From Leucoraja ocellata (lineage: Eukaryota): a stretch of DNA of 64,000 bases. Below, one piece after another: positions 3,593-33,427 of the stretch; position 1 is the stretch's first letter; each line of letters opens with the position of its first letter. The stretch is from positions 1 to 64,000 of the forward strand of contig JAWMAR010000513.1 of the NCBI GenBank assembly GCA_036785375.1. Reading direction: 5' to 3'. Under the pieces are notes generated by a model. It saw nothing but the letters and a program-made list of their open reading frames with translations. It did not search any database and had not been told where the DNA came from. The translations under genes were made by a program, and so were the position numbers.

Positions 3593-5595
3593 CTGAGTTT
3601 TTGCTCATCGCAGTCCTAAATGGCCTGCCCCTTATTCTTAAACTGTGACCCCTGGTTCTGCATTCCCCCAACATGGGGAACATTTTTTCTGCATCTAGCC
3701 TGTCCAATTCCCTAAGAATTTTATATGTTTCTCTAAGATTCCCTCTCATCCTTCTAAATATAAGCCCAGCTGACCCATTCTTTCATCATATGACAGTCCC
3801 ACCATCCTGGGAATTAATCTGGTGAACCAACGCTGCACTCCCTCAATAGCAAGAATGAACTTCCTCAAATTAGCAGACCAAAATGGCACACAATACTCCA
3901 GGTATGTTCTCACCAGGGCCCCGTACAACTGCAGTAGGACCTCCTTCTATACTCAAATCCTCTCATTATGAAGGCCCACGTGCCATTTACTTTCTTCACT
4001 GCCTGCTGCATGATTATTTTCCATGACTGATGTACAAGGACACCCAGGTCTCATTGCACCTCCCCTTTTCCTAATCTGACACCATTCAGATAATAATCTG
4101 CCTTCTTGTTCTTGCCACCAAAGTGGATAACCTCACATTTATCCACATTATACTGCATCTGCCATGCATCTGCCCACTCACCCAACCTATCCAAGTCACC
4201 CTGCAGCCTCAGCATCCTCCTCGCAGCTCACACAGCCACCCAGCTTTGTGTCATCTGCAAACTTGGAGATGTTACGTTTAATTCCTTTGTCTAAATCATT
4301 AATATATATTGTAAATAACTGGGGTGCTAGCACTGAGCCTTACGGCATCTCACTGGTCAATGCCTGCCATTCGGAAAAGGACCTGTTAATTCCTACTCTT
4401 AGCTTCATGTCTGCCAACCAGTCCTTTATCCAATACCAAGTGCTCTAATTCTGCACACTAATCTCTTGCGTGGGACCTTGTCAAATGCTTTTTGAAAGTC
4501 CAGTTACACCACATTGACTGGCTCTCCCTTATCCATTCTACTTGTTACATCCTCAAAAAATTCCAGATTAGTCAAGCATAAATCATAAATCCATGCTGAC
4601 TTTGACCAATCCCGTCAATGCTTTCCAAATGCACTGCTATTACATCTTTAATAATCGACTCGAGCATCTTCCCCACTACTGATATCAGGCTAACTGGTCT
4701 ATAATCCCATGTTTTCTCTCACCCTCCTTTCTTAAAAAAAGTGGCTATCCTCCAGTCCACAGTAAATGATCCAGTCTACAGAACTTTGGAAAATGATCAT
4801 CCACGATTTCTAGGGCCACCCCCTTGAGTACTCTGGGATGCAGACCATCAGGCCGTGGGCATTTATCTGCTTTCAGTCCCAACAGTTTACCTAACGCCAT
4901 TTCCTGACTAATGTGGATTTCCTTCCGTTCCTCCTTCCCGCTAGATCCTCGGTCCACTAGTATTTAATGGAGATTGTTTGTATCTTCTTTAATGAAGACA
5001 GAACCATGTACTTGTTTAACTGGTCTGCCATTTTCTTGTTTCCCATTATAAATTCACCCGTTTTTGACTGCAATGGGACCAACATTTGTATTTACTAATC
5101 TTTTTCTCTTCGCATATGTATAGAAACTTTTACAGTCAGTTTTAATATTCACTTTCTTTCATGCTCTATTTCCCCCCTCTTAATTAACTTCTTTGTCCTC
5201 CTGTGTTGAGTTCTAAATTTCTCCCAGTCCTCTGGTTTGCTGCTTCAATTTATATGCCTCTTCCTTGGATTTAACACTATTATTAATTTCCCTCATTCAC
5301 CACGGTTAAGCTGCCTTCCCTGTTTTTATTTTTACGCCAGACAGGGATGAACAATAGTTGTAATTCATCCACGCGATCTTTAAATCTTTGCTATTTCATA
5401 TCCACCGTTAACCCTTTAAGTATCATTTGCCAGTCTATCCTAGCCAATTCCCGTCTCATACCATCAAAGTTACCTTTCTTTACGTTCAGGACCCTCGTCT
5501 CTGAATTAACTGTGTCACTCTCCATCTTAATGCAGAATTCTACCATATTATGGTCACTGTTGTTTAAGGGGATTTGCACAACCAGATTGCTAACT
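3593..5595 (-). mobile_element. Degenerate CR1 (HER1-like) LINE ORF2, about 2 kb
   Basis: Frameshifted fragments in collinear order: PLNNSDHNMVEF/KKGNFDGMRRELARIDW (endonuclease C-term), LKADKCPRPDGLHPRVLKGVA (RT start), YGALVRTYLEYCVPFWS..IEGVQRWFTRLIP, RGNLRETYKILRELDRLD..TRGHSLRI. Confidence 0.9.
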
Positions 5596-19435: not shown

Positions 19436-20061
19436 AATGTCCTTTCACCTTGACAACAGTTTGTCTTGTCCTTTTCCTTCTTTGTTGGTTTTTAGTATGT
19501 GTTGCATGTATGTTTTAGTGTTCTTTAGATTGTTTTATGTGGGGGGGTGGGGGGCGGCGTTGGGGGAATTTTTTAAAATCTCTTACCTCGACGGAGATGT
19601 CGACTTTTTCCGTATCCTATCTCCGTCCGCACTGCGGCCTAACATCGAGGAGCAGGTGGCCTCTTGGTGGGGACTGACTTCGGGGAGCTCCAACTGTGGG
19701 AGCCTGCGGACTATAACATTGTGGAGCTCGCGGTCCCTGGTTAGGGACCGACTTCGGGAGCTCCAAGCCGCAGGAGCTTCGACCGCACCGATCACGGGAG
19801 CTTCGATTGCCGGCTGCTGGAGCTTTGATCGCCCTGACTGCAGATGGTTCGACTCCCTCGACCGCGGGAGAATAAAGAGGGAAGAAGATTAGACTTTATT
19901 ACCTTCCATCACAGTGAGGAATGTGGAATCCGCTGTGGTGGATGTTTATGTTAACTTTTATGTAGTTGTGCGGTTTGTTGCATTTTTTAATATGGCTGTA
20001 CGGTAAATCGAGTTTCACTGTACCTTAATTGACAATAAACAGACCTTGAAACCTTGAAACC
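19436..20061 (+). mobile_element. GC-rich non-autonomous retroelement with Rex1-type tail
   Basis: Body related to 12195-13000; ccttccatcacagtgaggaatgtgg core; tail tttcactgtaccttaattgacaataaa plus (CCTTGAAA)n. Confidence 0.6.
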
Positions 20062-21110
20062 TCTTCCCTTTCCACCAGAAAGGACCCAAATAATCTTTCA
20101 AGATAAAGCAGTGCACTTCTTCCAATCCAGTTTACTGCACTTGGTGTTTACAATGTGGTTTCCTCTATGGCAGAGAAACCAAACAATGATTGCGGTATTG
20201 TTCTAACAATGATTAGAACTTAGAACAATGCAGCACAGGAACAGGCCCTTCGGCATACATTATTTGTGCTGAACATGATGCCAAGTGAAACTAATCTCCT
20301 CTGCACATGATCCATAACCCTCCATTCCCCTGTGTATCCATGTACCTGTCCAAAAGCTTTTTAAATGCTGCCGAGGTGATATTTTTATGAAGCACCTGTG
20401 CTCAGTCGATTAGAATGACCCTGAGCTTTCAGTTTCCTGCCATTTCCGTTCTCCATACCACTTCCTTCCTGATGTTTGTGTGTGTGACCTCCTGCACTGT
20501 TAGATCAAGGCCACATACAAACCTGGGAGCAATGTTTGTGTGAGAATTGGCCTCTGTAAATTGCCCCTAGTGTATAGGGACTGGATGAGAAAGTGAGATA
20601 ACATATAACATGTGAATGGGTGATCGATGGTCGGCTTGGACAGGGTGCAGCAAAGGGCCTGCTTCCTTGCTGTATCTTTCATCAATCAGTTATTTACAGA
20701 TGACATGACATTTCAGTCACTTACCTCGATGCGATTTTTCTCCGTGTTGCATCTCCATCCCCGTCCCCCCCCTCTCCATCTCCCCCACTCACATCGTGGA
20801 GTGGTGCGGCCATTCGTGAAGACCGGCCGCTGGTGCGGCGTGGACTTACCATCGTGGAGCGTGTGAGCCGTTGCCGAGGGTCGCCAGCGGAGCTCCGACT
20901 GTGGGGCCTGTGGTCTTTAACACCGTGAAGCCGCGGCCTCTGGTAAGAAGAAGCCGACTCTGGAGCTCCATGCCGTGGAGTGTTCTGATCCATCCCGACG
21001 TTTCGATGATCCCGACGAGAGGGCTTGAACATCGGACAATAATCATGTATAGTCTTTAAGCTGACTAGATAGCACGCAACAAAAAACATTTCCACTGTAC
21101 CTCAGTACAC

Positions 21111-21270
21111 TTCTTATCGAGTCCACACACAAGATTAGAAGTTGTTCAGCCAGCTTCTCGGCATCTGCACAATGCATATGTCTGTCTCTCGCTTCTTGTG
21201 CTTCTTGTGCGTGGTGGTGGAAAGATTGGTGAAAACAGGGCCACGACGTGAACGATCTTTCCTTGACCCC
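21111..21270 (-). mobile_element. 160-bp non-autonomous retroelement with 5' HDV-like ribozyme fold and 10-bp TSD
   Basis: Flanked by ctcagtacac at 21101-21110 and 21271-21280; on the minus strand it begins GGGGTCAAGGAAAGA.. and ends ..GATAAGAA; inserted into the tail of a Rex1-type element. Confidence 0.8.
21219..21270 (-). ncRNA. Minimal HDV/CPEB3-like self-cleaving ribozyme candidate (52 nt)
   Basis: GGGGUCA A GGAAAGA U CG UUCACGU CG UGGCCCU GU UUUCA CCAA UCUUUCC. P1 starts with a G1-U wobble, P2 GGAAAGA/UCUUUCC is perfect, L3 is UUCACGU, J4/2 is CCAA, P4 is nearly absent. Confidence 0.65.
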
Positions 21271-21287
21271 CTCAGTACACTGAACAA

Positions 21288-21392
21288 TAATAAACGAAAC
21301 TAAACTAAATTAACTAAACTAAATTAAACTAAATTAAACTAAACTAAACTAAACTAAACTAAACTCAAACAAACCAAATCAAACCAAGCTAA
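21288..21392 (+). repeat. (TAAAC)n pentanucleotide tail array
   Basis: Imperfect taaac/taaat repeats following a Rex1-type 3' end. Confidence 0.85.
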
Positions 21393-21590
21393 AGATAGAC
21401 ACAAAATGCTGGAGTAACTCTGGGATCAGACAGCATCTCTGGAAAAAAAAAATAGGTGTCGTTTCGGACTCTTCGGAGTTCTTCAGACTCCTTTGTGTTC
21501 CTTTTCTCCAGAAATGCTGCCTGACCCATTGAGTTACCCCAGCATTTTGTGTCTACCTTCGGTGTAAACCTCCATCTGCACTTCCTTCCT
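21391..21590. repeat. Fold-back Penelope terminal module pair
   Basis: agacacaaaatgctggagtaactc..cagcatctctgga and its reverse complement tccagaaatgctg..gagttaccccagcattttgtgtct. Confidence 0.7.
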
Positions 21591-22244
21591 AAACTAAACT
21601 AAACAGGGAGAATGTGCAAACTCCACAAAGACAGCACCCAAGTTCAAGATCGAACCCAGGACACTGGCACAGTGAGCCAGCAACTATACCAGCTGCGCCA
21701 CTGTTCCGCCTAATCTGGTGTGTACTGATGTAATCTTTAGAATGGTTGGCCTCTCACAATTCATTTTTATTAAACTAAACTAAACTATTCTTTGTTGCCC
21801 ATTTGTTTGTTTTGTCTCTTTTTTTTAACATTTAATAATAAATAGAGATTGCACTTTGCGTGGGGGCTAGTGATTTTGGAAGTAATAGTGGAAGGAAATT
21901 GATTGCACAGTAAACTTCCCGAGTTAGAAGCTGACCGCGAATTCACGACAAATTGGTGAGCAATCCAAGTATTTCACAATTTGGGTTTCTCCTAAAACGC
22001 TATTATTGGGACATGAATGAGTTGATGTGCATCAATTAGTGTTTCAGCCTGAACAAAGCTAATTGCACAAAGCTCCGTTGAGAAATAGAAGGAACTGCTT
22101 AAGATCATAAGAAGATATCGGATAGAAATCTGGTGCAACAGTGAAAATAAAAGTTCTGGAGGCGGAGACACAGGTAAGAAAGGAAAAGGGGATCTTTGAA
22201 TAGCTCGTAAGCATGTAAGCATGTAAATGTATTTTAAAAAACAC

Positions 22245-22820
22245 ACAGAGAGTGGTGAATCTCTGGGATTCTCTGCCACATAAGGTAGTTGAGGCCAGTT
22301 CATTGGCTATATTTAAGAGGGAGTTAGACGTGGCCCTTGTGGCTAAAGGTATCAGGGGATATGGAGAGAAGGCAGGTACAGGATACTGAGTTTGATGGTC
22401 AGCCATGATCATATTGCTTTGAAGGGCCGAATGGCCTACTCCTCCACCGATTTTCTATGTTTCTATGTTTCTATACTAGACAGGGCACATCCAATGCATA
22501 CCACATTAAATTGGAGCGCAGGTGACTGAGAGGGTAATCTTATAGAGGTGTATAAAATCATGAGGGGAATAGATAGGCTGAATGCACAGAGTCTCTTTCC
22601 CAAGATGGGGGAATCAAAACTAGAGGGCATAAGTTTAAAATGAGATGAAAAGATTTAATAGGTATCTGAAAGGCAACTTTTTCACACAACGAGGGTGGTG
22701 GTAAACGAAATGATCTGGCAGAGGAGGTAGTTGAGGTAGGTACAATAACAACGTACTTCTTAGAAGAGCATTTTGGTTAGCATGGATGAGTTGGGCTGAA
22801 GAGCATCATTATGCTGTATG
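22245..22820 (+). mobile_element. Two CR1 3' fragments
   Basis: gagagtggtgaatctctggg..gaagggccgaatggcctactcct plus (TTTCTATG)n, then RLRGNLIEVYKIMRGIDRLNA-type segment. Confidence 0.75.
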
Positions 22821-22899
22821 ATTGCATTTAGAGTTATCCACCATTGTTCAGATCTGCAACTCTAGAGCTAATATTGACATGGTACTTTTCTAATTCAAG

Positions 22900-22970
22900 G
22901 GTATGGAAGAATACGTGAAGATGAAGATAGTGATGATGATGGCTCAGGTGATGAAATTGATGAATCATTG
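22900..22970 (+). pseudogene. TRIP12: Isolated TRIP12-like exon (orphan or duplicated exon, or part of a paralog)
   Basis: Acceptor tacttttctaattcaag, donor gtaaat at 22971. Phase-1 translation (G)[23 protein letters not shown] versus recalled human TRIP12 [25 protein letters not shown]. Flanking TRIP12 exons were not found by eye. Confidence 0.75.
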
Positions 22971-23944
22971 GTAAATGTTCCTGTTAGCTGGAATTTGCAG
23001 AAATGTTTATCGTAGTTATCAACATGTAACTAATAAATCTAATAATGTTAGTTAACTTTATCAAATGTTTACTCACTTTGAAAATTGGATTGTTTGATGC
23101 TTTAGGAAACGTGAATTATTACTATCTACAACTATGCACATTTGAAATATCTGTGATCACATTCTAAAATTGCATGTTATCATCATATTCTTCCGATGCA
23201 AAAGGGGAGAAATAATCAAGTCGCGAGTTGTGTTTTATTGTCACATGTCCCAGACCGAGCAATGAAATTATAACTTGCAGCACAATAGAATATGTAAACA
23301 TAGTACTCTGGAAGCAACATAATAAACGAGAGAAAAAATATATACACACACACACGCTTTCACTTTCCTCTGTTCCAGGTAAAAACCAAACCTATTTATT
23401 GAGATCATGGCGATACTCTATGCCAAGCATCTATCTGGAATTTACAATGCCCTTGACTAATGAATAGTTCTGGATTAATTGAACAAGCGTCTGCCAACTA
23501 GGGGAAGTTTTGCCCTTCTGTCACTCATTAATAAAGTGTTTCCTTGCCTCTCTCACTGGGCCTAGTCATGTCCCCTTGTCCTGGATACACCCAACGAGGA
23601 GTAAATTTTAAATAAAATAGTCATAGCATCTTCTACCGCTGGTATAAGCTCTTCAGCCCACCATGACAATTGGATCCCGTTTGATACTACTCTTAACGTA
23701 ATCTTATGCCCTCTGGTTGTAGACACCCATGTCAAGGGGGAAATGTTACCACTATTTACTCCATCCTTCCTCTAATATTGTTTATTTGAGTGAGATTTCC
23801 CAACTTCCTCCATACAAAAGAAATCAAACCCAGCCTTTCCAGTTTCTTAGCTGAAAGTCTCCATCCCCGGCAACATACAGTATGAGTGAATCTCCTCTGC
23901 ACTTACCATATATATAGTATGGCCTAACTAATACTTTATAATAC

Positions 23945-24510
23945 GTAGACGCAAAATGCTGGAGTAACTGAGCGGCCCAGGCAGCATCTCTGGAGAGAAG
24001 GAATGGGTGACGTTTCGGGTCGAAACCCTTTTTCAGACTGAGAGTCAGGGGAGAGGGAAACTAGAGGTATGAAAAAGTTCAGAACAAATCAGGCCTGGCA
24101 CTGATGACCAAGGAAATGTGGAGCCCACAATGGTCCATTGTTGGCTGTGGAAGAGGTGGTAGCGAAGGGATATGGGTGCGAACAGTGAAACAGGCAGGAC
24201 GATTAGGGTGGGGGAGAGGCGGAGAGAGGGAATGCAGGGTTTACTTGAAATGAACTGGGTGGGAAGCTGCCCAAGTGAAATATGAGGTGGTGTTCCTCCA
24301 ATTTGTGTGTGGCCTCACTCTGACAGTGGAGGAGGCCCAAATAGAAAGGTCAGTGTGGGAATGGGTAAAAGAGAGAAATCAATACTTATCAATACTGGGT
24401 TGTAAGTTGCCCAAGTGAAATATGTAGTGTTGCTCCTATAATTTGCATGTGGCCTCGCTCTGACAGTGGAGGAGGCCCAGACAGAAAGGTCAGTGTGGGA
24501 ATGGGTAAAA
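23945..24510 (-). mobile_element. Penelope-like 3' fragment with an internal tandem duplication of about 115 bp
   Basis: Terminal module 23945-24040; the LEEHHLIFHLGSF segment occurs twice (about 24255-24370 and 24395-24510). Confidence 0.7.
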
Positions 24511-25067
24511 GACAAACAGGCCATTTGACCCACCAAGTCCACGCCAATCACCCACTTACACTAAACAAAGTGTTGGAGGAAACACAGCAGGTCAGGCAGC
24601 ATCTGGGGAGGGAATGGACAGGCGATGTTTCCAATCGGGACCGTTCTTCAGACTGATTCCATTGTTTATTCTTCGCACCTACCCATTAAAGATCCCTCAG
24701 GTTCTACCACTCACCAATGTACCAGGGGCAGTTTAGAGTGGCCAATTAGCCAAGCAATTGGCTAATCTTTGGGGCGTGGGGGAAACTGGAACACTCCGAG
24801 GAAACCCAGGCAGTCACAGGGAGTACATGCAAACTCCACATAGGCAGCAGCCGAGGTCAAGACTGAACCCGGGTCTCTGGTGTGACCCACTGCACCACCC
24901 ACACTGGTATGCCAAGTGTGGAGAACATGTAGAAGTGTATGTTGGTGCCATGGAGCTGAATGAAAGTACAGAGGACATCATGGAATCTGGAAGCGGTGGG
25001 GAACGACCCCTGCCACTGGGCAGTAGGAGAGGTGAGAGCAGAGGTGTAGGAAACAGAAAGGGCACAC

Positions 25068-25113
25068 TTCTTCTTCATCTTCTGGCGTAAGGCATGCACA
25101 GCCTAAAGTTGTA
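25068..25113 (-). mobile_element. Short Vingi-type 3' end
   Basis: Reverse complement tacaactttaggctgtgcatgccttacgccagaagatgaagaagaa matches the 3' end of the element at 25443-26213. Confidence 0.7.
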
Positions 25114-25396
25114 AGACAACACGTCAGGTTGATTTGCACTGACCTCATTCATTTATTTTCTGGCTCAGTTTAACACACTATCTGTTATCCAGTTTGGTTT
25201 CAGTGAACTACCCATTTGGCAATTAACAGCAGAAATTTACTCCATCAACTCAAAACTGAAGGAGTGCCAGGACACATGGCACAGGTTATGTTACTTGGTA
25301 CATAATACACCTGGATAATAGTCACGGCCTCACGCTGACCTACTTCGATCTTTCCTTTTGGGAAATCATTTCTATCGACTTTTATTTAAAGGAGGA

Positions 25397-26490
25397 CGGA
25401 CGGCACGGTGGCGCAGCGGTAGAGTTGCTGCCTTACAGCGCCTCTACCGCATAAACTGAAAGCAAGGGTCAACATCATCAGGAAACCTGCAGGCAACAGC
25501 TGGGGATCCAACGCACACACCCTCCATACCGCAAGCTTAGCCCTCGCCTACTCAACAGCCGATTTTGCTCAACAACTTGGGCTTATAGCTGCCACACCAA
25601 ACGAGTTGACGCTGTCCTTAACTCTGCAATGCGGGTCATCACAGGGATGCTTAAGTCAACACCTTTGCAGTGGCTACCTGTCCTCTCTCATATCGCCGCT
25701 CCCAGCATACGCAGAAGGGAGAGGATGTTGAAAGATTGGTGCACCATCGAGGCCAACCCTGACCTTCCCATCCATGCTGACGAACAATCTGCCCAACATG
25801 CGCCTGAAGTCCCACAAACCCTTCTGGTCTTCAGTTAAATCCCTGGAAGACTTTGACTCCAAGACTGAGTGGCGCAGAGCCTGGAAAGATGCCAACCCCA
25901 ACAACGGAGAGGTCTTCACAGACCCACAGTGAAACCACTGGGATTTGACCTCCATCGCAAGCAATGGCTAACCCTGAACAGAATCTGCACCCTCCATGCA
26001 ACAACAGCCCATCACCTGCATAAGTGGGGGATAACAGACAGCCCTGCTTGCGACTGCGGACATCCAGACCAGACCGTCCCACACATCGTGAATGAGGCTT
26101 TTCCCTGGTGGCATCAAAGGCATCCACCCAGTAACTGATGCTGCCCTGGCCTGGATGTCTACCCTTGACCTACAACTTTAGGCTGTGCACGCCATACGCA
26201 AGAAGAAGAAGAACCACCAGATACCCAGGTTCCATCCTGACCACGGGTGTTGTTTGTATGGAGTTTGTACCTTCTCCCCGCGACTCTGTGGGTTTTCCCC
26301 AGGTGCTCCGGTTTCTTCCCACACTGCAAAGACGTACAAGTTTGTAGGTTAATTTAACTTTGGTTAAAAACATTGTACAATTGCCCCTAGTGTGTAGGAT
26401 AGTGCTAGAGCACAGTGTTCGGCAGTTGGCATGGACACTATAGGACCAAGGGCCTATTTCCGCGCTGTATCACTAAACTAATCTAAACTA
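25397..26490 (+). mobile_element. V-SINE split by the Vingi insertion (head 25397-25442, body 26214-26490)
   Basis: ggcacggtggcgcagcggtagagttgctgccttacagcgcc, interrupted, then ccagatacccaggttccatcctgacc..V-domain..aagggcctatttccgcgctgtatc(actaa)n. Confidence 0.85.
25443..26213 (+). mobile_element. Vingi/Ingi-group (I superfamily) LINE, 5'-truncated
   Basis: KLKARVNIIRK.AGNSWGSNAHTL.TASLALAYSTA, NSAMRVITGMLKSTPLQWLPVLSHIAAPSIRR, C-terminal zinc knuckle WGITDSPACDCGHPDQTVPHIV, 3' ccatacgc plus (AAG)n tail; contains frameshifts. Confidence 0.8.
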
Positions 26491-28100
26491 AACCAAGACT
26501 GTGAGATATCCAATGTTTTGCCATCTCTCCCCGATATTCGATCATTATTCCAGGACAGCTGCTTTGCAAGAAAGCTAGATATTTCAGAGCCATTATAGCA
26601 ACCACAGTGTTAACATAACCAACCTGACTCCAGTCAGTCATAAGTAACCCAAATCCCCACTTCCTTACTGTGCTCATTTATCTTATTGTCGTGTCATTGT
26701 ACATGTCGATCTGCCAAAGCGGGGTGGGTGATGGCACCGAGAATTTAGAACTCAGTGAAAAGAAATTGAGTGAGGGGAATGGGGGTGGGGGGAGTTGGGG
26801 CACATCTCTTGTTCATAAGGTCATAAGTCATAGGAGTAGAAGTAGGCCATTCGGCCTATCATGTCTACACCGCCATTCAATCGTGGCTGTTCCATCCTTC
26901 TCTCTCAACCCCATTCTCCTGCCTTCTCTTCATAACCCATGACGTCGTACCAACGCAAGTATCTATCAATCTCCACATTAAAAATACCCAATGACGTGGC
27001 CTCCATGACCACTCGTGGCAATGAATTCCACAGATTGACCATCTTCTAGCTGAAGAAATTCCTCCTCATAGTTCCCATCTGGAGTATTCCTGTTTTAAGC
27101 TGGTTGGCAACTTTCACACCGTGGATCCCAGAACAAACCAGCCAGGGGTTCTGAGGGCAGGCCCAGTGGTGTTCTCACTCTCAAGGGGAGCTGGGCGGTG
27201 GGAGCTGCAGACATATTATTTATTCTGGCCAGTGTTCAACACCACCATCAAGTGTCTCTGCACACAAACCACATCGAAAAACCTCAGGCAACTGTGGGGA
27301 TTCCAGCCTCCACACCTGAACTCTCTTCAAATTGAGAGGAATGTGATACGTAATAAAGATTCTAAATTTATCGTTCTTTTTATGCCAGGAATGTGTAGGA
27401 AAGTGGTGGTACCAGGTACTAATGTGCGCACCTTCCAAGCACTGCAATACAGTTGCCAACACCCATGCCTAATTGTTTATAGATATATCTAAACTTCAGA
27501 GAGACTGCTTAACATTGAAGTCCACATTATTGGGCAGCAGGGTTTCGAGGTGGCTGTGTTATCAGGAAGTGAAGTTAGGTGAATATGACTTTCAGAGCCC
27601 AAAGCACACGGCCTCTCAACTCTTCCCATTGGTTCCTCAGTTCCCCGTCAAGTGAAACTGGCCTGAGAGCAGCTTGCGTTACAATATTTGAGGATACTCC
27701 TCGGGCTGAAGTGCGTTTATAATCCTGTGAAAGGCAACTTTCAAAATAATTCCACCAAAAACCTGCTGCAAGAAAGAAAATTAGCACGAACAATGTTTGT
27801 GGAGGTTTGCCCGGATACCAGAAAGGTAAGATAAATCACATAGATATACTGTACAGAGGTATTATAGCAAAATGACATAGAATACTTGAGCTTGGTCATT
27901 GACGGTCATGTTTTGAAATGATTAATAATAAGAACTTATAAAAGGGGAACATACATCATTTGGAAAGTAAGTGTAATTTTTTAATCTTAATCAGTAAATT
28001 GTCAATTACCCAGTGGTTTTCATTTCCATTAACTACTTGTTCCTAATTGCAATATTGCGTCTATCTATGGTTTGACAAAGCATTAGGATAGATTGTCACA

Positions 28101-32323: not shown

Positions 32324-32467
32324 AGATCTGCAAACAAATAACATCAGTGAACAGTGACGTGCAGAAACTGAAATGGCAAGATGTCCTTTAATATGACCAA
32401 TAACACGATGGAGGATTAACTTTGTATGGTTTGTCCATTCCATACACAAAGAACATTAAGCGGAGCC

Positions 32468-33427
32468 ATGAACAGTTCTAACGAGACGTCTGATTGTATT
32501 TCTATTGCAGTGAAGACTTCAATTTTCCTGGTTGATTTTCTCATCACTGCTGTTTGGAGCCATGCAATAACTAGTGCCGTGCAACAAGAATTGGAATTGA
32601 AACGAGAGACCAGATATAACCTCCTGTGCCAACATCTCATCTACTCTTCCATATATTTCGCCTTGGGCACCGTGACAAACGGCTTTCGGCTCTTCAAGGT
32701 CGACTTACCGCGAGTTCTTTGCTGGATTTTGTTCCCTGTACAAATAACATTCGCACAATGCATCATGCTAACTTTAACCCTAATGTCCTTGAATGCTTGT
32801 CTGGCTATCTGCTGGCCACTGCGGTATTATGCACTTGTTGGTTCCCCCATAAGGAAAATAACCGCAATAATATGGATATTGGCAGTGCAGAATCCATTGT
32901 GGTCTGTAGTTTACCAAAGTCTGAATGTGTCCTCAGCATACATTATTGAAAAAGACAGTAGCTGCCCAAATCCAATGAATGGATTTGTTTCAAGGCAAAT
33001 TGCAATTGCATTTATCCTACTGTGTTTTCTCATGATTGTAATAAGTTATTTGTTAATATACAGAGAAGGAAGACGAGCAGGACATTTTGTGTCCTCAAAT
33101 ATTCAAGCCAGGAATACCATTCTCATCCATGGCTTCCAATTAAGCTTTTTCATTCTCCCGGTTTTGATCACAATAGGAATAGGTAAAAAACCTAAATTAA
33201 CAGCACTGAATCTAGCCAACACTGTCATATTCTCTGTTGCTCAGTGCCTTAGCCCCGTGATTTATGGGCTCAGATGTAAAGAGCTTCGAAATAAATTAGC
33301 AACAACCAAATTCTGCTGCTGTGCATTTAAACACGGGAAGAAAAGTGCAAGGGCGATGCGACTGAGTGAAGTCCCTACCATTAGCACCGTGACTGATACC
33401 AGGAGCAGTCAAGTCTGCAATCCCTGA
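32468..33427 (+). CDS. Single-exon rhodopsin-class GPCR, type-2 odorant-receptor-like (OR131-2-like; eta/theta/kappa-related), 319 aa
   Basis: Uninterrupted ORF (in-frame upstream ATG at 32426; gccATG at 32468 gives MNSSNETS with N-glycosylation sequons). Seven hydrophobic segments. Motifs ETRYNLL, MSLNACLAICWPLRY, ISYLLIY, ARNTILIHGFQL, AQCLSPVIYGLRCKEL. Tandem TGA stops; AATAAA at 33773. Confidence 0.9.
   Translation: MNSSNETSDCISIAVKTSIFLVDFLITAVWSHAITSAVQQELELKRETRYNLLCQHLIYSSIYFALGTVTNGFRLFKVDLPRVLCWILFPVQITFAQCIMLTLTLMSLNACLAICWPLRYYALVGSPIRKITAIIWILAVQNPLWSVVYQSLNVSSAYIIEKDSSCPNPMNGFVSRQIAIAFILLCFLMIVISYLLIYREGRRAGHFVSSNIQARNTILIHGFQLSFFILPVLITIGIGKKPKLTALNLANTVIFSVAQCLSPVIYGLRCKELRNKLATTKFCCCAFKHGKKSARAMRLSEVPTISTVTDTRSSQVCNP

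Follow-up and report, generated by a model that had tools for sequence, protein, structure and literature searches.

Short non-autonomous retroelements that share a ribozyme head with an APE-type LINE are described from trypanosomes, where NARTc, RIME and SIDER carry the L1TcRz (Pr77) head of the Ingi clade (PMC3185411, PMC3383444, PMC4035085). The heads of L1Tc and NARTc are reported to cleave at +1 (PMC3185411, PMC3383444, PMC4035085), and the 77-nt head is described as both a ribozyme and a Pol II promoter that starts at +1 (PMC3185411). Bipartite LINEs, in which 5' and 3' ends are joined by internal deletion, are recorded for the RTE, Ingi, Vingi and R2 clades and include derivatives of Vingi-1_EE (Kojima 2018, PMC5786205). 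Members of the Vingi clade are characterized by a single ORF with an APE endonuclease and a reverse transcriptase (RT) and by the lack of RNase H (PMC13708176). Minimal HDV-like ribozymes lack P4; those described, drz-Mtgn and the theta ribozymes, have the catalytic C as the first base of J4/2 and come from metagenomes and phages, where they adjoin tRNAs (PMC10879173). The mammalian CPEB3 ribozyme (RF00622), which has been linked to memory, is a single conserved intronic copy with a P4 and a 7-bp P1. A 2021 paper states that it had not been found outside mammals, and a review credits Webb 2009 with HDV-like ribozymes of lamprey, lancelet and sea urchin (PMC8256844).

The element analysed here, from a skate, shares traits with each of these systems. 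Like NARTc, RIME and SIDER it is a short non-autonomous derivative with the head of an APE-type LINE, an HDV-like fold that starts at +1 and dispersed insertions with target duplications; unlike them it has a vertebrate host, a Vingi-type parent without an RNase H match, and a 52-nt head without P4 and with a 6-bp P1 that is a predicted ribozyme only. Like the bipartite LINEs it consists of a 5' and a 3' end joined by internal deletion. The missing P4 and the position of the putative catalytic C recall drz-Mtgn and the theta ribozymes, but here the fold heads an animal retroelement and P4 was lost among P4-bearing relatives. The typical element head also shares 19 straight bases of the P3-L3-P1 core with the CPEB3 ribozyme; unlike the latter, the skate element is multi-copy, scores 24-31 bits with RF00622 and decays neutrally.

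The insert lies on the minus strand of the window, by which we mean the whole 64,000-nt stretch of Leucoraja ocellata DNA that was analysed. The initial annotation had described a precisely bounded insert at 21111-21270, and the exact 10-bp duplication on its flanks confirms both the boundaries and the target-site duplication (Table 1). The 3' half of the window copy is altered by indels, and the copies with the best match measure 168 nt. A 146-bp inverted-repeat element adjoins the insert at 21403-21548 and gives sub-threshold matches to microRNA models on both strands; it is most likely a MITE-like repeat. Further along the window (32420-33427, plus strand) is an intronless receptor gene of the odorant receptor 131-2-like / GPR148-like type of cartilaginous fishes, which shares 96% identity with an odorant receptor of a skate and whose best 12 of 19 matches are from sharks and rays.

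Table 1. Features of the insert and its flanks, in window coordinates.
Feature	Position	Strand	Basis
Target-site duplication, 3' side	21101..21110	.	identical to 21271-21280
Last codons of the parent ORF (stop 21135-21137), 3' UTR and short AAG tail	21111..21169	-	window copy 93% over 44 nt to L232
Rest of the parent LINE 5' region, a variable short repeat, ending at the deletion junction	21170..21218	-	matches L239 5' region; junction seen in L203
HDV-like ribozyme head (predicted), 52 nt, no P4, 6-bp P1	21219..21270	-	pair check; RF00622 25.4 bits; 87.8% to parent LINE head over 74 nt
P2 3' arm	21219..21225	-	pairs with 21256-21262
Candidate catalytic C, first base of J4/2	21229	-	C in 26/27 aligned copies
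P1 3' arm, then GU (P1.1)	21237..21242	-	pair check
P3 stem and L3 loop; two copy-specific changes give a U-U mismatch	21243..21255	-	2/3 pairs; family majority 3/3
P2 5' arm	21256..21262	-	7/7 pairs with 21219-21225
P1 5' arm, begins with G1	21265..21270	-	6/6 pairs with 21237-21242
Predicted cut site	between 21271 and 21270	-	fold position, directly before G1
Target-site duplication, 5' side of element	21271..21280	.	identical to 21101-21110

A DNA search of the 3.44-Gb genome with the element gave 2,830 candidates, and all 40 that were scored were 87-100% alike over nearly the whole length. The first 16 nt have 2,668 exact matches in the genome compared with 10 for a reversed control, and the copy number is therefore beyond chance. 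Thirty fetched loci comprised six independent sites, all with the same starting G; 24 of the 30 represent a single amplified site. The latter loci (L003-L022, L025-L028) are one young insertion site amplified across many small contigs, so the element there sits inside a large repeated unit. The element thus forms a family of at least 2,668 copies with a common start at G1, as had been proposed, and the target duplication directly adjoins this G. A duplication of at least 7 nt abuts G1 in 11 of 28 copies, compared with 12 of 756 in a flank-swap control; the 28 are those of the first 30 listed copies with a script-called 3' end, and 11 is a minimum, since the script ended some copies too soon. 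The base at -1 in 30 copies (L281-L310) is T in 15, G in eight, A in four and C in three. With G in only eight of 30, the element does not start one G earlier and P1 is not 7 bp. The T found in half of these copies may reflect a target preference. Outside CpG sites the copies are ∼ 93% identical to the family majority (head 93.6%, body 92.8%); the head is conserved no better than the body, hence there is no sign of selection after insertion, and the family is ageing and now mostly decaying. The element is also present in thousands of pieces in contigs of two other organisms.

Helices are named here according to standard HDV usage (P1, P2, P3, P4, J4/2). The first 52 nt of the minus strand had been proposed to fit the HDV nested double pseudoknot, and they do: all six pairs of P1 form, including G1-U, P2 is perfect, P3 has two of three pairs, P1.1 is C21-G35, P4 is absent and C42, the candidate catalytic base, opens J4/2. 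The additional A-U pair described for P1 is present only through a CpG-type C-to-T change in the window copy, and the typical P1 has 6 bp. Canonical HDV-like ribozymes have a P1 of 7 bp. The suspicion that the window copy is one nucleotide short through decay holds for P3 but not for P1: the short P1 is a trait of the family, shared by the family-S copies and their parent LINE (see below), whereas the broken P3 is decay, a CpG-type C-to-T plus a G-to-T change giving the U-U mismatch. Both P3 changes are shared only with L002, a twin of the same site. Other families differ from this pattern, seven of the remaining eight having a 7-bp P1 (family H is poorly sampled at its 5' end), and no active natural 6-bp P1 is documented in the literature searched. 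The pairings are kept across copies; the family majority has the complete double pseudoknot of P1, P2, P3 and P1.1, with a 3-bp P3, the 6-bp P1, the G1-U34 pair, L3 and the J4/2 C. The window copy lacks one P3 pair.

With RF00622 the region 21219-21281 scored 25.4 bits (E 3.5e-4), and four other copies of the element scored 23.7-31.4 bits, all below the cut-off of 35; a scan of the whole window with Rfam at gathering scores gave no match. A strict HDV descriptor, written after the sequences had been seen, matched 56 times in 1.97 Mb of fetched loci, always at family C, D or S heads, and not at all in 5.9 Mb of shuffles. The U-U mismatch in P3 makes the window copy fail this descriptor. Single mutations in the 3-bp P3 of CPEB3 and HDV are very poorly tolerated (PMC9901934), so the mismatch is probably crippling and the window copy is probably a weak or dead ribozyme that cuts poorly. 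Decay is widespread in the family, every pair and C42 being intact in only six of 30 heads, L309 and L310 among them. At least six of 30 copies (L287, L293, L294, L299, L301, L306) have deletions inside the pseudoknot with differing break points, possibly skips of the reverse transcriptase over folded RNA. Nested folding, a model that leaves pseudoknots out, gave z values of -0.19 for the window copy, +0.6 for the typical head, -1.1 for family C and -2.8 for the metagenome copy L314; the typical head thus folds no better than its shuffles, and its P2 5' arm is predicted to pair instead with the short linker that follows P1, in a rival helix.

The 3' half of the element reads as the C-terminus of a Vingi ORF. 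A pattern built to exclude ordinary copies gave 30 loci, two of them with upstream coding sequence. With this coding sequence as the query, a LINE family was obtained that we call family S (107 candidates; of the 40 scored, most were 81-90% alike); a typical copy of the element matches all 30 fetched family-S 3' ends at 82-93%. Among ten extended family-S loci, one (L239, G000:C3112:16373-19156, 2.78 kb) has the head, RT and tail together: the element head at 89% over 74 nt, RT-coding sequence, and the tail at 90% over 73 nt, flanked by a degraded target duplication. This copy has no endonuclease region and is interrupted by insertions; only two occurrences of its 5' motif are present in the genome. 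Inside its RT region, at 4025-4580 of the locus, is a GC-rich insertion of ∼ 550 bp with inverted ends. A query with the post-head region of the parent recovered the two parent copies and otherwise an unrelated inserted repeat. Family S retains only the RT and C-terminal part, and no intact family-S LINE was found in the genome. The junction is seen in L203, where ∼ 97 nt of the parent 5' end are joined to its last 72 nt. Both ends of the element therefore derive from a single LINE family, and the element is an internally deleted Vingi-type LINE made of the first ∼ 97 and the last ∼ 72 bases of family S. It has the target duplications, microsatellite tail and lack of coding capacity of bipartite LINE derivatives. 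Family H has made a bipartite element independently (L160/161, L166/167).

These data support a non-autonomous element that depends on a Vingi-type LINE, as initially suggested, with family S as the parent. The partner originally put forward, the Vingi at 25451-26213, belongs to another, older family (A); its DNA matches the element over at most 15 nt (E at least 0.18), and family A was discarded as the parent because its 3' end does not match. The 3' ends of families B-I do not match either. A query with the C-terminal protein of family C returned, by identity, almost only family C. The Vingi at 25451-26213 (plus strand) is 5'-truncated and lies inside a tRNA-like SINE head, in an element that we take to be a SINE. 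The idea of a SINE with a ribozyme in place of a tRNA head is better replaced by that of a bipartite internal-deletion derivative, a known class (PMC5786205). A classical composite SINE, with an unrelated small-RNA head, a LINE tail and the nearby family-A Vingi as its source of mobility, would account for a short, high-copy, non-coding element with a LINE-derived tail and a Vingi 4 kb away. We consider it very improbable: head and tail occur together on one family-S copy, L239, where the missing short-copy tail after the head and the shared duplication speak against a chance juxtaposition, and the family-A 3' end is unmatched. ARAGORN found no tRNA at 20000-27000. The element was said to be free of Pol III boxes; for the B box, a 9-mer resembling the motif occurs once in the 3-kb locus L204, compared with 1.3 expected by chance. 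With a LINE-derived head, no tRNA and the B-box pattern at chance level in L204, the element falls outside the tRNA-, 5S- and 7SL-headed SINEs.

Our preferred reading, which we hold to be likely, is that this internally deleted family-S LINE inherited an HDV-type head that cut the RNA before G1, and that the trimmed RNA was copied by the RT of the parent. The element would be transcribed by Pol II, either by read-through or from an internal promoter; the head would fold in the transcript and C42 would cleave just before G1. The initial suggestion of a promoterless element is not supported, and the related L1Tc and NARTc heads double as Pol II promoters (PMC3185411). The family-S protein would then recognize the 3' stem and the AAG tail, and target-primed reverse transcription at a nick would insert the precisely trimmed RNA elsewhere. 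Such a mechanism would yield full-length copies that start at G1 with flanking duplications, as are seen. The cleavage step is modelled on L1Tc and NARTc, whose heads cleave before +1, and the short P1, the rival helix predicted by nested folding and the small proportion of intact heads argue against it. The same features would fit an element of identical origin whose shortened head is catalytically lost, with the 5' end set by an internal Pol II promoter and the fold surviving as a relic or as protection of the RNA end. Since the L1Tc head is also a promoter starting at +1 (PMC3185411), this would explain the common 5' ends, and several copies have spread or persisted with deletions inside the head. 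However, P1 was shortened cleanly, with one base gone from each side, and both the parent and the majority of the ∼ 2,700 copies retain G1-U, P1.1, L3 and the J4/2 C; family A, moreover, has separately lost P4 yet keeps a perfect fold. We regard a catalytically lost head as unlikely.

LINE families were collected by an endonuclease-domain query and by reading of their 5' ends; the family letters are ours. There are ten families of single-ORF APE and RT elements of ∼ 3.1 kb, and Pfam gave no RNase H match in the scanned pieces. Family C copy L089 is 3.15 kb long with one frame of ∼ 1,000 codons and few stops, in which Pfam identified endonuclease and RT only. The families are Vingi-type by anatomy, the RT tree having no named Vingi or Ingi references. 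Nine of them (A-E, G-I and S) start with an HDV-type fold, and in all nine a C-N-R-A junction precedes the P2 3' arm; family F is decayed and was left out. Decayed family F Vingis occur as near-identical, satellite-like copies in L090, L091 and many small contigs, with endonuclease matches ∼ 1.8 kb apart. Family A, in its copies of full length, starts with a P4-less HDV-like fold of its own whose P1 has 7 bp. The target duplication abuts the ribozyme-like head in four of six LINE copies examined, and in contigs of two other organisms the family-C match begins at G1.

Across the nine families the arms of each head pair with each other at 131 of 135 positions, compared with 661 of 1,080 for swapped arms, a count that leans high as it came from a best-fit search, in which only 2-3 copies represent E, G and I, a flank base was added to the P1 of S by the script, and the 5' G-run of H is intact in one copy only. 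When eight heads were aligned, 92.8% of cells were paired versus 83.2% after shuffling (0/500 as high), which is not a probability because the rows are related; 8 of 23 pairs were changed on both sides (slid controls, 36-51%). MAFFT alignments that mixed 6-bp and 7-bp heads were out of register and were excluded from the counts. The HDV-type fold is thus kept by compensatory changes across nine LINE families. In the RT tree (FastTree, 18 rows, no named references) S groups with H (0.919) and (C,(S,H)) has a support of 0.987. Since S is placed among P4-bearing relatives, its head has lost P4. The family-S head is of the same lineage as those of its sister families C and H, and is most simply a C/H-type head minus P4 and one P1 pair. 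Of 28 loci recovered with a head of family H as the query, 13 consist of the head alone, with an upstream flank that is the family's own 3' part reversed (L153-L155, L158, L159 and L162-L165 of family H; L172-L175 of family C). They resemble the 5' inversions of twin priming, by which a ribozyme can end up alone at a new site and in a new orientation.

The likeness to the CPEB3 ribozyme noted at the outset proved to be much stronger in these sister families, both of which pass the RF00622 cut-off. In one set all four family-C loci scored 49-61 bits (cut-off 35), and in a second 13 of 17 loci passed (11 H and two C, up to 64.7 bits); overall, family C heads reach 49-65 bits and the 11 family H loci 35-50 bits. 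Counted by eye, L088 of family C agrees with the RF00622 consensus at 45 of the 53 positions that lie outside P4, its differences being six in three compensatory pairs, one G-C to G-U change and one unpaired base; the family H majority does so at ∼ 47 of 53. In location the skate sequences differ from the CPEB3 ribozyme, being heads of multi-copy LINEs rather than part of mammalian CPEB3 intron 2. A degenerate core pattern gave four matches in metagenome contigs, at two distinct places (L313/L316 and L314/L315). These near-copies of the CPEB3 ribozyme score 51-66.5 bits with a different P4, L314 agreeing at 50 of 53 positions outside P4. One is upstream of a fibrinogen-domain exon on the same strand and is therefore probably animal DNA but not the CPEB3 locus. 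There is no Vingi ORF within 1.5 kb of either.

On balance we favour the view that the CPEB3 ribozyme of mammals arose by domestication of the 5' head of a Vingi-clade LINE, with relatives still present as transposons in skates. Alternatively, the likeness could be due to convergence on a single optimal sequence of the HDV type. In favour of this, the fold is both short and under constraint, part of the core is found in family B, which is more distant in the tree, and the two animal-like metagenome places reach their high scores with no Vingi ORF within 1.5 kb. Against this, the identity (45-50 of 53 positions outside P4) extends to stem positions that are freely exchangeable, and at E 0.01 RF00622 found no match in eight loci of families A, B, D, E, F and G, although most have the same fold. 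The core pattern, moreover, has no match in 2.9 million viral contigs and 185,579 prokaryote genomes, and CPEB3 is described in a review as substantially different from HDV ribozymes in sequence (PMC8256844). Convergence seems to us possible but doubtful. That mobile elements were the source from which conserved ribozymes of vertebrates were domesticated is a general suggestion of a 2020 review, which, in its available text, names no donor (PMC7761336).

In itself the element belongs to a known class, that of bipartite LINE derivatives headed by an HDV-like fold, comparable to NARTc, here in a new minimal 52-nt form in a vertebrate. The surprising part is the presence of HDV-like heads across Vingi-type families, two of which pass the mammalian CPEB3 model. 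We found no report of Vingi ribozymes or of a link between CPEB3 and Vingi in the literature searched; Webb 2009, Ruminski 2011, Kojima 2011, PMC3386971, supplements, Repbase/Dfam, the full hit list of Rfam and patents may overlap with these results. If our interpretation is correct, HDV-like ribozymes are a general property of Vingi LINEs, and a head of 52 nt whose P1 has 6 bp was sufficient for thousands of insertions. Gene writing already employs the anole Vingi-1 together with its native 5' UTR (PMC13708176), and a self-cleaving head there would matter for the design of such tools. The frequent 5'-inverted, head-only insertions would offer a route for a lone ribozyme into an intron, and families C and H would supply the non-mammalian outgroups that are said to be missing. 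The human genome holds traces of ancient Vingi elements (PMC5753468). Together with these traces, the skate families C and H, as a concrete donor lineage with sequence-level likeness to the CPEB3 ribozyme, would make the question of its origin testable.
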